A DNA stretch of 44,372 bases, from positions 1 to 44,372 of the forward strand of contig JANQFY010000178.1 of NCBI GenBank assembly GCA_028277585.1. The letters are read 5' to 3'. Below, in pieces: positions 38,908 to 43,584 of this stretch. The stretch comes from Sedimentisphaerales bacterium (GTDB lineage: Bacteria; Planctomycetota; Phycisphaerae; Sedimentisphaerales; Anaerobacaceae). The notes beneath the pieces are model-generated. The model did not search any database and was not told the DNA's origin. It saw only the letters and a list, made by a program, of their open reading frames with translations. Numbering within the stretch: the stretch's first letter is position 1; the number at the start of each line of letters is the position of its first letter. The position numbers were made by a program, and so were the translations under genes.

Positions 38908-40257
38908 ATGAACGCCAGCCGCACTTCTCAGCAACCGTCCGCATCCCGCCGTGACTTCCTCAAGCAGACCTCCGGCGCCCTGGCCGGCGTGGCTCTGGCC
39001 GGGGGCATCGCCGCACGGGCGTGGGCCGGCGAGCACAACACGATCAAGATCGCCCTGGTCGGTTGCGGCGGACGCGGGACCGGTGCGGCCGCCCAGGCGC
39101 TTTCCACCGCCGGACCCACGAAGCTCGTCGCCATGGCGGATGTCTTCGAAACTCGCCTCGAGAACAGTCTTAAGGGGCTGGCCAAGCAAAAGGGCGCGCA
39201 GGTGGATGTCCCCAAGGAGCGTCAATTCGTCGGCATGGACGGGTACAAGAAAGCCATCGACGCCATCGCTCCCGGCGGGGTCGTCCTGCTGGCGACACCT
39301 CCGACCTTCCGGCCGCTCCACGTCGAATACGCCGTGAAGAAGGGCTGCCATATCTTCATGGAGAAATCGTTCGCCGTCGACGCCCCCGGCATCCGCCGCG
39401 TCCTCAAGGCGGGCGAGCGGGCCGAGAAGAAGAATCTCAAGATCGCCAGTGGTCTGATGAGCCGTCACTACCAACCGCTGGTAGAAGCGGTCGAGCAACT
39501 CCACGACGGCAAGATCGGCGACATCATCACCTGCTGGGCCTATCGCGAGCACACGCCCGTCGGCTTTGCCGCCAAGGCGCCCGGCATGACCGAGATGGCC
39601 CACCAGATCCGCAACTATTCGAACTTCACCTGGGTCAACGGCAGCTTCATCCTCGACTGGCTGATCCACAACATCGACGTCTGCTGCTGGTGCAAAGACG
39701 CCTGGCCCGTTTCCGCTCAGGGTCAGGGCGGGCGCCAGACCCGCACGCACGCCGATCAGTTGTTCGACCATTACGCCGTCGAGTATCACTTCGCCGACGG
39801 GACGCGCCTCTTCGCCCAGGGCCGGCACATGGACAACTGCTGGGGCTTCTTTGGCGACCACATCCATGGCACCAAGGGCTGTGCCGAGTTGGGCGAGGGC
39901 ATCAGCAACCCGCGTATCTTCAAAGGTCACAACGTCGAGCCGTCGAACCTCATCTGGCGCTACAAGGGCCCGCGCTGCAACGCCTATCAGGTCGAGCACG
40001 ATCTGCTCTTCGACGCGATCCGCAAGAACAAGCCGTACAACGAAACGGTGCGCTCGTGCAACGCCGCGATGGCCGGCATCCTGGGCCGCATGGCCGCCGA
40101 GTCCGGCCAACTCATCACCTGGAAAGACGCCATGGCTTCGGACCTGGAACTCGCCCCGGGGATCGAGCACTTCACCATGAACTCGACCCCGCCGGTCGTG
40201 CCCGACGCCAACGGAAACTATCCCGTCGCCATGCCCGGCAAGACAGTCGTGCTATAG
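38908..40257 (+). CDS. TAT-exported Gfo/Idh/MocA-family oxidoreductase (second copy in the window)
   Basis: RBS AAGGAGAG 5 nt upstream. TAT motif [21 protein letters not shown]. Rossmann motif [16 protein letters not shown]. Motif FMEKSFAV. Confidence 0.85.
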
Positions 40258-40276
40258 GAGTGCCGCCAAGACCCAA

Positions 40277-40540
40277 TTGGCTGAGACCATGAAGAAACTA
40301 CTCAACGGACAAGCATTAGAAGCCAGAGCCAAGGAACTCGGCGTAGACGTCCAAGGCGACCCCATTACTCGGAGTGCGTCTGGACGCCACGCAAGAGCTG
40401 ACGATGCTGAACTCCAGCGTCGTGTTCTTGAGGCCGAGAGAGCCCTGCGAGATTCGCGTCTATGGATTCTCGCGTTCGTGTCTGCACTAGCGTCTCTGTT
40501 GAGCGCTATGGCAGCGTGGATTGCAGCCCTTTCGAAATAG
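40277..40540 (+). CDS. Small hypothetical tail-anchored membrane protein (87 aa)
   Basis: The open frame has a C-terminal hydrophobic helix (LWILAFVSALASLLSAMAAWIAAL). Codon usage and GC are atypical for the window (TTA, AGA, TCA codons). There is no homology I can recognise. Confidence 0.3.
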   Translation: MAETMKKLLNGQALEARAKELGVDVQGDPITRSASGRHARADDAELQRRVLEAERALRDSRLWILAFVSALASLLSAMAAWIAALSK

Positions 40541-40613
40541 CACGAGTGCCGGGTGGCAGCGTCAAGCGCAAGCTTGGCGATAGTTCGTTTGGGCGCTGAA
40601 GGGAGATAGGATT

Positions 40614-41453
40614 GTGAAAGCGCCGTGCCGAGTCGTGTTTCTACTCAGCCTCCTTGCACCAGCGTGCGGCGGAGCCGAGTTGCGCATCGCCAGTCTGATG
40701 ATCGAGCCGGTCAAGTGGGACAAGGATGCGAACGCCAGAACGTTCGAGCGGGCCATTCGGGACGCCCAGCGTCAGGGCGCGGACCTGGTTGTCACGCCCG
40801 AGGGGGCGCTGGAGGGCTACGTCGTCAACGAGGTGATCCGCGCGACGGGCGAGAAGCGAGCCGAACTGACCGAACGGTTTAATGCGTTAGCCGAGCCGTG
40901 CGACGGGCCCTACATTCGCTCCTTCCAGAAGTTGTGCAGGGAGTTGAAGGTCTATCTGATTCTGGGCCTCCTGGAAGCGGATGGCGGCAAAACGTACAAC
41001 ACCGCGATCCTGATCCGTCCGGACGGCACGATCGCAGGTAAGTACCGCAAGACGCATTTCGCCCAGGGCTACAGTAATGGCGATAAGAAAGGTGACAACC
41101 CGCCGGGTTACCTGCGGGGCACGAGTTATCCCGTCTTCAAGCTACACGGCCGCAAGATGGGAATCATGATCTGCTACGACCGTCAGAAGCCAATCGTCGC
41201 CCGCAACCTCGTCGCCAACGGCGCCGAATTCATCATCAACCCCGCCTTCGGCATGATGGGCGACTGCAACTGCAGATTCCTCACCGCCCGCGCCAAAGAA
41301 ACCCACGTTCCCATCCTCTTCGTCCACCCCCACCAGACGGTCTACAGCGACCAAGGCGGCGAGATCAAGCTCGACCTGCGACCCAAGAACGACGACCCCA
41401 GAGTCGTTGTCGTCCCCGTGGAGATCGGCAACGTCGCGACGACCTCGCCATGA
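40614..41453 (+). CDS. Secreted carbon-nitrogen hydrolase (nitrilase-superfamily amidohydrolase)
   Basis: GTG start with signal peptide MKAPCRVVFLLSLLAPACGGA. Catalytic triad contexts VTPEGAL (Glu), KYRKTHF (Lys), GIMICYD (Cys). Confidence 0.8.
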   Translation: MKAPCRVVFLLSLLAPACGGAELRIASLMIEPVKWDKDANARTFERAIRDAQRQGADLVVTPEGALEGYVVNEVIRATGEKRAELTERFNALAEPCDGPYIRSFQKLCRELKVYLILGLLEADGGKTYNTAILIRPDGTIAGKYRKTHFAQGYSNGDKKGDNPPGYLRGTSYPVFKLHGRKMGIMICYDRQKPIVARNLVANGAEFIINPAFGMMGDCNCRFLTARAKETHVPILFVHPHQTVYSDQGGEIKLDLRPKNDDPRVVVVPVEIGNVATTSP

Positions 41454-41527
41454 CGAACAGGACCGGCACGCACGCCGTCACAGTGACTCATTGAAGGAGA
41501 GAAATGTCACATTCTCAGAAAAAGGGG

Positions 41528-41556
41528 TTGACATAGAATACTCTTGTGTCTAGAAT
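41528..41556 (+). promoter_or_regulatory. Near-consensus sigma70-type promoter: TTGACA - 17 nt - TAGAAT
   Basis: TTGACA at 41528-41533, a 17-nt spacer, TAGAAT at 41551-41556. Located in a lower-GC non-coding island. Confidence 0.55.
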
Positions 41557-41562
41557 TATGCT

Positions 41563-41773
41563 TCACACTATCGTGCGGAAAGAAATCGGAACTTACGAGG
41601 ATTGAAATGTCATTCGTCTACGGAATACATCTCTGGTTAGCGCAACCCAAGGCGGGCGAATTGCTGCGCCTCGTGGTGGCATATCAGAAAACTGATATGG
41701 CGAACATGGGCGGCGCAGACCCCGTGAGGGGAGGTGCTCCGTAGAAGGAATAGGAATCGTACAAGAGACCGAC
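41563..41773 (+). ncRNA. Candidate small RNA or small-protein transcript (~240 nt to the end of the terminator) running from the predicted promoter to the intrinsic terminator. It contains a possible 45-codon ORF (41607-41744, MSFVYGIHLWLAQPKAGELLRLVVAYQKTDMANMGGADPVRGGAP).
   Basis: The unit is bracketed by a consensus promoter and a 10-bp GC-rich hairpin plus U-tract. GC content is clearly below the window average. A weak RBS-like AGGAT sits 6 nt before the ATG. No family assignment is possible by eye. Confidence 0.35.
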
Positions 41774-41810
41774 AAGCCTTCTGGGTAGCCCCTCAGAAGG
41801 CTTTTTTTAT
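41774..41810 (+). terminator. Rho-independent terminator
   Basis: AAGCCTTCTG (41774-41783) pairs perfectly with CAGAAGGCTT (41794-41803) around a 10-nt loop. The stem is followed by TTTTTTTAT. Confidence 0.7.
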
Positions 41811-42017
41811 TGCTTCCACTTGCTTGTGACACGCTGAGTCATGAGGTCGCCAGAGGTGCGCGCTTACCAGGTGTACGTGCGGTGGGAGCTTTGAAATGAG
41901 GTCGTGACAATCAGTTGAAGGGACCTGTGGATTTCACTGGGCCGGCGGCACGAACCTGACGGATGTCCCGTTTCGGGTCTCGCGTTCCGCGATCGGATTC
42001 TAACGAAAGTGAATCCT

Positions 42018-42089
42018 GACGGATTAGCTCAATGGGAGAGCATCACCGTCTCAAGGTGACTGTTGTGGGTTCGAATCCCACTCCTCACA
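42018..42089 (+). tRNA. tRNA-like element (anticodon loop GTCTCAA, giving anticodon CUC / Glu-type), with canonical D, anticodon and T arms but a poorly paired acceptor stem; possible tRNA pseudogene or remnant
   Basis: D-arm TA-GCTC-AATGGGA-GAGC. Anticodon stem TCACC/GGTGA. T-arm GTGGG-TTCGAAT-CCCAC (the GGTTCGAATCC box). The 5' GACGGAT versus 3' TCCTCAC pair at only 2-3 of 7 positions. No encoded CCA. Confidence 0.4.
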
Positions 42090-42477
42090 GCCAAGGACCC
42101 TTACGAGGGTCCCAGATGAGCCCCAGGGAAACGGCTGGTTCCAGGACACAAGCGGCTCTCGGTTCGTCGCCGCGCAGCGAATCGACGAATCGAGGCCGCA
42201 CCATTGGCAAGCGCCTTGCAGTGCGCGGATACCGCCCCTGAGGGCGTGCGGAAGGCGCCCCGCCCACGGTGGCGCAGGCTCGGCTCGGGCTGTTGGAGGG
42301 ACAGTGGCGAGTCGGGCGGCGTCGCCCGGGAGGGCGCGGCCACGCGCCCCGATGGCTCAAGCGTACTCCGCGTGAGTCGGTGGAGTGGAATGGACCGGCC
42401 GTTTCCCGAAGGCCTGCACCGGCCCGGTGCGAAACGACGTATTGAAAGTGTCATGAACAAAGGAAAGGAGGTAACAC

Positions 42478-43584
42478 ATGCTGGCTCTGAAACGAATTAA
42501 GGTACACAGCTACGAGAAGGGTCTGCATTTCCGAGACCAGGAGTTCAAGCGACTGCTCGAGCCGGGCGTCCACTGGTTCTTCGATCCGTTCGGCAAGGTC
42601 GCCGTACACGTGGCTAACCTGCGTCAGCCGTGGTTGGAGCACCCTCAGTTGGATCTGGTCGTAGCGGCCGATGTCTTGGGTGAACAGGCGACGGTTCTGG
42701 ACCTCAAGGACCACGAGCGGGCGCTCGTCTGGATCGATGGGCGATTTGCCCAGGTGGTGGGCCCTGGAGTGACGGCTTTGTGGACCACGCACCGCAAGGT
42801 GCGCGCTGAGATCGTGGACGCGCGAACGCTGCGTTTCGATCATCCCGAGGCCGCCACGATCCGCAAGACGCCCAGTGGCAGTCTCAGTCTGGAAGAGGTC
42901 GTCGTACCGGAAGACCACGTCGGGGTCTACTTCCGTAACGGAACGTATACCGAGACGCTGTCGGCCGGAACGTATCGATTCTGGAAGAACGTCGAGCGGT
43001 ACGAGGTCAAACCGGTTAGCCTCGCCGAGCAGACGATGGATGTCGCCGGCCAGGAGATCATGACCGCCGACAAGGTCACGCTGCGGCTCAATGCCCTGGT
43101 GACCTATCGCGTGGCGCATCCCGAGAAGTCGGTGCGTGTAGCGGCCGACGCCCGGCAGGCGCTGTATCGCGAGACCCAGTTGGCGCTGCGTGCCGTCATC
43201 GGTGGGCAGGACCTCGACGCCTTGCTCGCCGACAAAGACGCGATGGCTTCGGCACTGGGCGACTTGGTGAAGCCGCGTGCCGAAGCGCTCGGGCTGACTG
43301 TCGTGTCCCTCGGCATCCGGGACGTAATTCTGCCCGGCGACATGAAGGAACTGCTCAACCGAGTGACTGAGGCGCGGAAGGCCGCCGAGACGAACGTCAT
43401 CGCTCGACGTGAAGAGACGGCCGCCATGCGATCGCAGGTGAACACGGCCCGGCTGTTCGAGAACAACCCGACCCTGATGCGGTTGCGGGAACTGGAACTG
43501 CTGGAGAAGATCGCCGGCAACTCGAAACTCAGCGTCATGCTGGGCGAGAAGGGACTCGGCGAGCGGATCATGAACCTCGTGTGA
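42478..43584 (+). CDS. SPFH/Band-7 domain protein (stomatin/flotillin/HflKC superfamily)
   Basis: Strong RBS AAGGAGG 9 nt upstream. SPFH core (…TADKVTLRLNALVTYRVAHPEKSV…AAETNVIARREETAAMRSQ…) with a C-terminal coiled-coil-like region. Confidence 0.85.
   Translation: MLALKRIKVHSYEKGLHFRDQEFKRLLEPGVHWFFDPFGKVAVHVANLRQPWLEHPQLDLVVAADVLGEQATVLDLKDHERALVWIDGRFAQVVGPGVTALWTTHRKVRAEIVDARTLRFDHPEAATIRKTPSGSLSLEEVVVPEDHVGVYFRNGTYTETLSAGTYRFWKNVERYEVKPVSLAEQTMDVAGQEIMTADKVTLRLNALVTYRVAHPEKSVRVAADARQALYRETQLALRAVIGGQDLDALLADKDAMASALGDLVKPRAEALGLTVVSLGIRDVILPGDMKELLNRVTEARKAAETNVIARREETAAMRSQVNTARLFENNPTLMRLRELELLEKIAGNSKLSVMLGEKGLGERIMNLV

Follow-up and report, generated by a model that had tools for sequence, protein, structure and literature searches.

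What is encoded in the short stretch of low G + C content that separates a CN-hydrolase gene from a Band-7/SPFH protein gene in contig JANQFY010000178.1 of a Sedimentisphaerales bacterium (Planctomycetota; assembly GCA_028277585.1)? The contig was analysed over 44,372 nt, from position 1 to 44,372 of the forward strand, and this whole stretch is referred to here as the window. An initial annotation, made from the sequence of the window, had singled out positions 41528-41812 as a promoter-to-terminator unit and had offered a regulatory small RNA (sRNA), a leader or a small protein as its product. Our analyses favour, with a probability of about one half, the view that the unit encodes a structured non-coding RNA (ncRNA) of ~245 nt and is restricted to one lineage, the RNA being predicted to be a stand-alone sRNA. 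The RNA options of the initial annotation gained from a fold that is kept in the one other distinct version of the unit, while the peptide option lost ground, its open reading frame (ORF) showing neither protein-level constraint nor relatives outside the immediate lineage.

Promoter and terminator of the unit

The unit opens on the + strand with a sigma70-type promoter in which TTGACA (41528-41533) and TAGAAT (41551-41556) are separated by a 17-nt spacer. Its consensus score is 11/12, and it is the only site in the window to reach at least 11/12 when both strands (88.7 kb) are scanned, the next best match scoring 10/12; from the promoter spacing, the transcription start is predicted at ~41563-41565. 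The unit closes with an intrinsic terminator (41774-41811), the arms of which (41774-41783 and 41794-41803) are complementary at 10 of 10 positions. Counting one G.U pair, the stem comprises 12 pairs around a 6-nt loop, and the T7 run (41802-41808), followed by ATT, contributes its first two T residues to pairs with AA at 41774-41775. The promoter and the 10-bp hairpin with T7 that had been noticed at the outset are therefore both present, but the description of the hairpin as GC-rich does not hold, as about 50% of the stem (6 GC pairs of 12) is G + C. In a scan of both strands, no T7 or A7 run and no strong terminator-like hairpin was present in the window apart from the site at 41774-41808.

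A promoter and a terminator that are each unique in the window, ~218 nt apart and both on the + strand, would seem to be far more than chance could produce. In terms of sequence motifs, the unit has the layout of an sRNA gene, namely its own promoter and its own intrinsic terminator on one strand, with no overlap with a protein gene. In addition, the G + C content is 0.44 at 41500-41699 and 0.61 in the whole window, which bears out the lower G + C content that had been reported for this island, and both the promoter and the terminator are identical between the window and the second version of the unit described below.

A second, weaker promoter match, TTCTCA-16-TAGAAT (41512-41539), overlaps the first one. 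The hexamer TAGAAT occurs twice, 17 nt apart, once abutting the -35 box (41534-41539) and once as the -10 box (41551-41556); the two copies possibly represent two overlapping promoter-like sites or an operator-like direct repeat. In Anabaena, the promoter of a tRNA L-array is controlled by repeated elements overlapping with its -10 box, although with a motif that differs from TAGAAT (PMC8421152). A motif resembling a Shine-Dalgarno (SD) sequence plus start codon is also repeated, as AGGAGAGAAATGTCA at 41495-41509 and AGGATTGAAATGTCA at 41598-41612, with a looser third copy, GAGCTTTGAAATG, at 41886-41898. The first copy opens a mini-ORF of 10 codons (41505-41537) that overlaps the -35 box, and the repetition may be due to chance or to a small duplication.

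Fold and pattern of constraint

In the collections searched, two distinct versions of the unit were found, that of the window and that of a 1,892-bp TARA scaffold (L087), which are 92.8% identical; the scaffold has the same order as the window, with the CN-hydrolase gene, the unit and a tRNA-like element. Within 41563-41812, 18 of the 250 positions differ. The RNAalifold consensus of the two versions contains 74 pairs, and nine of the 18 differences fall in paired columns, with pairing kept in all of them. Three pairs changed in a compensatory manner from the window to the TARA version (41662/41717, U-A to C-G; 41681/41698, A-U to G-C; 41686/41693, A-U to C-G), and three others changed on one side only and remained wobble-compatible (C-G to U-G, U.G to C-G and G-C to G.U). 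The folding and covariation check proposed in the initial annotation thus returned three compensatory, three wobble-compatible and no broken consensus pairs, from a single informative homolog. To avoid circularity, the changes were also scored on the minimum free energy (MFE) structure of the window alone, with three compensatory changes, three one-sided changes and four pairs broken in the TARA version. When the same number and type of substitutions were placed at random on this structure, at least three compensatory changes arose with a probability of 0.0005 under uniform placement and 0.004 under clustered placement.

The predicted RNA begins with a 5' hairpin (41563-41605; consensus columns 1-43), which includes the C-G to U-G change with pairing kept and carries an SD-like GAGGA (41597-41601) in its 3' strand. 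This hairpin is followed by a long irregular core hairpin (41608-41774) made up of closing stems, a one-sided bulge, internal loops and an apical hairpin, and then by the terminator. The bulge, AAUACAUCUCUGGUU, comprises 15 nt on the 5' strand (41624-41638) with 0 nt opposite, and the apical hairpin has 8 bp (41680-41699). Together with the purine-rich segment GAAGGAAUAGGAAUCG at 41745-41760, the bulge is a candidate for a conserved single-stranded region. As the one-sided changes would be A.C mismatches on the minus strand, the + strand is the probable RNA strand. This assignment is independent of the promoter, and it matters because the MFE z-score, -3.4 for the + strand, is no better than that of the minus strand.

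The differences between the two versions are unevenly distributed, as was revealed by comparing individual segments with the synonymous divergence of the neighboring CN-hydrolase gene (pS = 0.104). Only one of 109 positions differs in the region upstream of the predicted start (41454-41562; P = 9e-5), which comprises the promoter and the segment reaching from the stop codon of the CN-hydrolase gene to the -35 box (41454-41527). There are five differences in the 99 nt of the 5' third of the RNA (P = 0.048), one in the 93 nt of the 3' third including the terminator (P = 4e-4), and two in the 113-nt spacer that separates the terminator from the downstream module (41813-41925; P = 4e-4). In contrast, the apical part of the core hairpin (41662-41719) differs at 12 of 58 positions, that is, 20.7% compared with a neutral expectation of ~10% (P = 0.015 for the excess); at 11 of these 12 positions, the window has A/T where the TARA version has G/C, and pairing is kept throughout. 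By this comparison, purifying selection acts on the promoter region, on the 5' and 3' thirds of the RNA and on the terminator, and the overall pattern would be expected for an RNA with functional ends, bulge and flanks and with an apical stem that serves as a scaffold. Despite its conservation, the spacer contains no sigma70 match of at least 9/12 and no sigma54-like match; it could be a promoter or another regulatory site, or a segment transcribed by read-through.

Distribution of the unit and the downstream module

The arrangement described here was recovered from three independent data sets: the NCBI contig, the TARA scaffold and a Logan contig (L088) from run SRR20820733, which is identical to positions 40085-42175 of the window. 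Across 91 fetched loci, searches with nhmmer, blastn and a covariance model of the 140-nt core (R1) found the unit in the TARA scaffold and the Logan contig only, so that R1 matches are restricted to these two and the window. When metagenomes were scanned with a DNA pattern that had the 15-nt bulge at its centre and tolerated transitions, 0 hits were obtained, and nothing similar to the unit was found in viral contigs (searched with two patterns), phage records or plasmid records. A search of Rfam 15, which had been suggested in the initial annotation, assigned the unit to no known RNA family: in a 2.5-kb scan nothing overlapped 41528-41812 at E <= 10, and a 291-nt scan with the most permissive filters gave chance-level matches only (E >= 3.3, 12-18 bits).

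The flanking sequence indicates where the unit is missing. Relatives of the CN-hydrolase, which carry the names Pirellulales or Pirellulaceae, share the upstream genes of the window (trehalose-phosphate synthase, GH15 and a 449-aa Gfo/Idh/MocA-like protein) where the hydrolase is 74-90% identical, but similarity ends at 41453/41454, right after the hydrolase stop codon. In these relatives, a different gene starts 24-130 nt after the hydrolase, encoding a 351-aa or 228-aa protein and followed by an alpha-L-fucosidase gene (L001, L002, L004, L085, L086, L089 and L090). No similarity to the unit was detected in any of the nine related loci, which further include L003, covered by the nhmmer and blastn searches, and L091, with just 38 nt of DNA 3' of the hydrolase. 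From the position of this synteny break and the absence of the unit from the relatives, it therefore follows that the unit is confined to a very narrow lineage, which, on the available sequences, is a marine planctomycete one. Further upstream, between the Gfo/Idh/MocA-like and CN-hydrolase genes, an 87-aa ORF (40277-40540, +) has no family match and a G + C content at third codon positions (GC3) of 0.51; at its place, the relatives have a gene of 137-138 aa (with a weak DUF4288 match in L086), and the ORF is possibly a decayed or mis-called gene.

Downstream of the unit lies a module of quite a different distribution. The element at 42017-42088 (+), 205 nt 3' of the unit, was called as tRNA-Glu(CTC) and scores 44.6 bits with the Rfam tRNA model, with mismatches in the acceptor stem. 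Its counterpart in the TARA scaffold (1526-1597) has the anticodon TTC rather than CTC, through two loop changes. A homologous 63-nt tRNA-like core was found with an nhmmer profile once per locus in 66 of the ~78 loci with enough upstream DNA, among 80 genomic loci of SPFH homologs that were fetched (L005-L084), at a distance of 340-620 nt upstream from the SPFH gene. The element of the window fits this profile (E = 9.8e-16) and lies 393 nt upstream of its SPFH gene. Throughout the family, conservation is high in the D, anticodon and T arms and the outer acceptor pairs are mostly unpaired, while the 'anticodon' is hypervariable: 56 elements have 28 different triplets between them, TTA and A34 triplets included, and 6- or 8-nt loops occur. 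By these sequence features, the element is not an ordinary tRNA. It has a tRNA-like cloverleaf, adjoins a Band-7 gene in the same orientation and belongs to loci of the RNA-repair type, and its family matches the b7a-tRNA predicted by Burroughs & Aravind (2016), as quoted in a later preprint, according to which it was experimentally unvalidated as of 2018 (bioRxiv 10.1101/312249).

The tRNA-like element (42017-42088) is part of a larger structured leader (41926-42477) of the Band-7/SPFH gene, which encodes a 368-aa protein (42478-43584, +; Pfam Band_7, E = 5.9e-30). The leader also comprises a conserved 5' element (41926-42016) and, in the ~300 nt between the tRNA-like core and the Band-7 start codon, a structured domain (~42120-42413) with long-range helices that covary across 16 loci, one of them from an Acidobacteriota metagenome-assembled genome. 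In this alignment, 93.7% of the cells are paired, compared with 35-46% when the partners are slid, and 31 of the 53 pairs show double changes; none of 500 shuffles reached the observed values. The region contains the conserved motifs UGCAGUGCGUGGAUACCGC and GCUCAAaCGaCACUCCGC, and ~42120-42413, which no Rfam family covers, is possibly a large structured leader or ncRNA of RNA-repair loci that has so far gone undescribed. The 10-mer CCTGACGGAT occurs as an exact direct repeat at 41955-41964 and 42015-42024, 60 nt apart, and the 5' edge of the tRNA-like element is made up of the second copy. Complementarity between the RNA of the unit and the downstream leader (inverted repeats I1, I4 and I6) was considered and rejected, as the partner of I6 is not conserved in the TARA version and the order of the segments is inconsistent.

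Elsewhere, the module occurs in two kinds of surroundings. Two loci (L005 and L006; 1603-7211) have a divergent RtcR gene followed by tRNA-Leu, the tRNA-like element, SPFH, RtcA and RtcB, and in Adhaeretor mobilis (L062, 5130-7686) the SPFH gene is followed by two RlaP nucleotidyltransferase genes. Among the Band-7 upstream regions inspected, which include L039, L018 and L038, several RtcR-linked ones carry a sigma54-type promoter 160-280 nt upstream of the b7a core (e.g., TGGCACATCCGTTGCT in L039). To judge from gene content, those Band-7 loci that have no tRNA array are of the classical rtc type. The module is also found, in many planctomycete loci, right after a co-oriented array of 13-26 tRNA genes (L062, 390-3518; L037, 42-3536; L041, 83-3381), which ends in the order His, a gap of ~700 nt, Trp, Thr, two to four Arg and Cys; the gap encodes an HNH endonuclease of ~200 aa (L037, 1850-2518; L009, 2095-2691). 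These arrays look like the tRNA 'L-arrays' described previously (PMC8421152), a report in which we found no link of L-arrays to Band-7 or b7a-tRNA. A PADLOC search returned no defence-system match for the Band-7 protein or its neighbors, and the window contig ends 790 nt past the SPFH gene. As far as gene order can tell, the module has been moved, in the lineage of the window, to a place beside the CN-hydrolase gene and away from an RtcR gene or a tRNA array. Because R1 finds the unit in no other Band-7 locus, the unit is not a conserved part of this module.

Weighing of the alternatives and comparison with known systems

If the unit is indeed a stand-alone sRNA gene, RNA polymerase would start near 41563 and would mostly stop at the U-tract (41804-41811), releasing an abundant RNA of ~245 nt that consists of the 5' hairpin, the long irregular hairpin with its conserved 15-nt bulge and the terminator hairpin. 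The product would act as an RNA and in trans, through base-pairing or protein binding by the conserved unpaired segments, with the apical stem as a mere scaffold, and read-through of the terminator may transcribe the b7a-tRNA/Band-7 module. Its position heading the relocated module suggests that its function may be tied to that module, a positional link drawn by analogy with YrlB and YrlA, the extra ncRNAs of rsr-yrlBA-rtcBA operons. A more specific and distinctly doubtful proposal is that the unit might be a lineage-specific RNA 'front end' of an RNA-repair module, either a conditional terminator that gates the module under a signal of RNA damage or translation stress, or a partner RNA of the Band-7 protein; in either form it would take the place of the RtcR/sigma54 control or of the transcription driven by tRNA arrays that other genomes use.

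Several observations weigh against the reading as a stand-alone sRNA gene. The outer helices are poorly defined, since four pairs of the window-only MFE structure are broken in the TARA version, and the minus strand, with a z-score of -5.0, folds at least as well as the + strand. The covariation comprises three pairs from one informative homolog, and two of these pairs belong to a perfect inverted repeat of 8 bp, in which template switching during replication could produce the semblance of compensation; the third spans 55 nt in an imperfect helix. As the apical part evolves fast, the overall identity of 92.8% is no higher than neutral. The unit also appears dispensable for the wider clade, being absent from relatives with 74-90% identity in the flanking genes. 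Neither Rfam nor RNAduplex on the start regions of the window revealed a target, a partner protein or a known family; the RNAduplex comparison with the translation-initiation regions of the high-GC3 ORFs of the window (35 ORFs, some of them spurious antisense ones) was uninformative, with the neighboring genes ranking 25th and 35th. Finally, the stretch from the terminator to the Band-7 gene contains neither a sigma70 match of at least 9/12 nor a sigma54-like promoter, which would fit the role of a leader too.

This last point leads to the alternative that survives best, although we consider the odds to be clearly against it, namely that the unit is a cis-acting leader or attenuator, the 5' UTR of a longer mRNA as considered in the initial annotation, in which the promoter at 41528 drives the whole operon of b7a-tRNA, structured leader and Band-7 gene and the terminator is conditional. 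In this scheme, CCGUAGAAGG (41738-41747, the 3' strand of the closing stem), when free, would pair through its AGAAGG (41742-41747) with CCUUCU at 41777-41782, in the 5' half of the terminator stem, and permit read-through, whereas termination would be enforced if the closing stem were stabilised by a signal in the form of a ligand, a protein or an RNA. Consistent with this idea, the unit lies on the same strand as the conserved module and just upstream of it; 41557-42478 contains no other sigma70 match of at least 9/12, nor the sigma54-type promoter that RtcR-linked loci have; the habit of the module elsewhere of directly following co-oriented tRNA genes is compatible with transcription from upstream; and the spacer after the terminator is unusually conserved. 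In addition, a fold computed without the 3' half of the terminator pairs UAGAAGG with CCUUCUG, in competition with the closing stem. The unit would thus resemble attenuating leaders and riboswitches, including T-boxes, in having a promoter, a structured leader of ~200 nt, an intrinsic terminator, co-oriented genes and a possible competing helix. However, the terminator, with its 12 pairs, U7 and A-tract partner, is far stronger than the putative antiterminator, which has 6-7 bp and a loop of ~28 nt, and as all positions of the latter are invariant between the two versions, they provide no covariation test of it. No riboswitch, T-box or other leader family matches in Rfam, the ORF to be regulated begins only after a further 670 nt and a second large structured RNA, and the element occurs in one lineage whereas the widespread module does without it.

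It is improbable that the unit is a non-functional relic, that is, a piece of foreign DNA of lower G + C content at a rearrangement junction, in which template switching and AT/GC-biased drift give the appearance of compensation. The dip in G + C content, the position of the unit exactly at the synteny break after the CN-hydrolase gene and its narrow distribution would all fit such an origin, as would the location of two of the three compensatory pairs in a perfect palindrome and the AT<->GC nature of 11 of the 12 apical changes. However, significantly fewer changes than at synonymous sites are seen in the promoter region, in the 5' and 3' thirds of the RNA and in the terminator (P = 1e-4 to 5e-2), the third compensatory pair belongs to an imperfect helix and has its two positions 55 nt apart, and no phage, plasmid or viral contig shows similarity to the unit.

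Still less probable is a small-protein gene or a dual-function RNA, in which the 45-codon ORF MSFVYGIHLW... (41607-41744) would be translated, either alone or beside an RNA function. The ORF exists as initially described, although the RBS-like AGGAT (41598-41602) lies 4 nt, not 6 nt, before its ATG. It is intact in both versions and was called as a gene by automatic annotation in the public record of the contig (P0121); GAGGA is found 5 nt upstream of the ATG, codons 1-18 contain a single change, which is synonymous, and the G + C content at codon positions 1 and 2 (0.63 and 0.43) is like that of real genes. However, its 13 nucleotide differences from the TARA version (2, 7 and 4 at codon positions 1, 2 and 3) replace eight of the 45 residues, for the most part non-conservatively (with L>S, Q>P, T>L and D>A among the exchanges), all within the last 27 residues, and the conservation of the first 18 codons is equalled by the non-coding flanks. 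The ratio of nonsynonymous to synonymous divergence (pN/pS) is 0.78, compared with 0.27 in the adjacent CN-hydrolase, so that purifying selection on the amino-acid sequence was not found between these two versions. GC3 is 0.65, compared with 0.80-0.84 in the neighboring genes, the ORF has no hydrophobic stretch of transmembrane length, and both its SD-like GAGGA and its AUG are base-paired in the consensus fold.

Database searches gave no further support to the peptide. No Pfam family matches the 45-aa ORF, a 66-aa ORF or an antisense 79-aa ORF, and protein homologs beyond the immediate lineage were absent from 1.84 billion cluster representatives, among which phmmer returned only the ORF itself, and from 5.8 billion proteins, where the frame had one other copy, that of the TARA scaffold (P0122, 82% amino-acid identity). 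The concatenated translation of the other five frames had no match in the 5.8 billion proteins, and none of the 600 pattern matches in a metagenome scan with the 66-aa frame translation was real. Thus, because pairing is kept while the ORF drifts neutrally and is without protein relatives, the unit is better read as a structured ncRNA than as a peptide gene, and the annotated 45-aa protein is probably spurious. Known dual-function sRNAs (SgrS/SgrT and RNAIII/delta-haemolysin) likewise combine a structured RNA with a short ORF behind an SD-like motif, but the ORF of the window lacks their protein-level purifying selection.

Finally, it is very improbable that the unit is a divergent 6S RNA (SsrS) or a Y RNA (YrlB/YrlA-like) serving the adjacent RNA-repair module, since its strong promoter and terminator, its rod-like fold with a large unpaired segment, its size near 200-250 nt and its place beside a b7a-tRNA/Band-7 module, Y-like RNAs being known elsewhere from loci of this type (bioRxiv 10.1101/312249), are offset by the lack of any 6S, Y or Yrl model match even at E <= 10 with relaxed filters, by a one-sided 'bubble' (15 nt on the 5' strand, 0 opposite) in place of the two-sided central bubble of 6S RNA, by its absence from close relatives, in which a housekeeping RNA would not be missing, and by the lack of a Ro/TROVE (rsr) gene among the genes nearest the unit and the Rtc queries, no search of the window having been aimed at rsr. 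Among the candidate identities that were tried and rejected are 6S, T-box and Y RNAs, none of which has a matching Rfam model, and a protein sponge of the CsrB/Rsm type, as the seven GGA motifs of the unit are not enriched over shuffled sequences (5.7 +/- 2.0, P = 0.34).

For the planctomycetes, the favoured reading as a structured sRNA gene would have some consequences. A review from 2022 lists only eight annotated sRNA families for the Planctomycetes-Verrucomicrobia-Chlamydiae (PVC) group (PMC9029176); regulatory RNAs of Planctomycetota are almost uncharted, and the unit offers a clean and directly testable candidate, which in addition corrects an annotated 45-aa 'protein'. Its placement at the head of a module that is a predicted component of RNA repair is the most interesting lead, and if the unit controls or cooperates with the module, it would provide a handle on how such modules are switched on without an adjoining RtcR gene.

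The stand-alone sRNAs of enterobacteria, such as Spot 42 and RyhB, have their own sigma70 promoter and Rho-independent terminator. The unit is like this class in its intergenic location, its strong promoter and a predicted discrete product (~100-250 nt in the class) that ends in a terminator hairpin and U-tract, and also in its conserved unpaired segments, variable scaffold stems and narrow phylogenetic range. It differs in that its ~245 nt lie at the long end of the class, in the dominance of one long irregular hairpin and in its occurrence in Planctomycetota, and no target, seed or chaperone has been identified for it. The second comparison is with RNA-repair loci that contain ncRNAs, as here too an ncRNA heads a locus of the RNA-repair type and is followed by a b7a-tRNA-like element and a Band-7 gene. 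In contrast to the ncRNAs of those loci, the unit lacks a tRNA-like domain and is matched by no Y or Yrl model, it ends at its own terminator instead of arising by the processing of an operon transcript, and none of the other 80 Band-7 loci examined contains it. The unit is best described as a new, lineage-restricted structured RNA gene.

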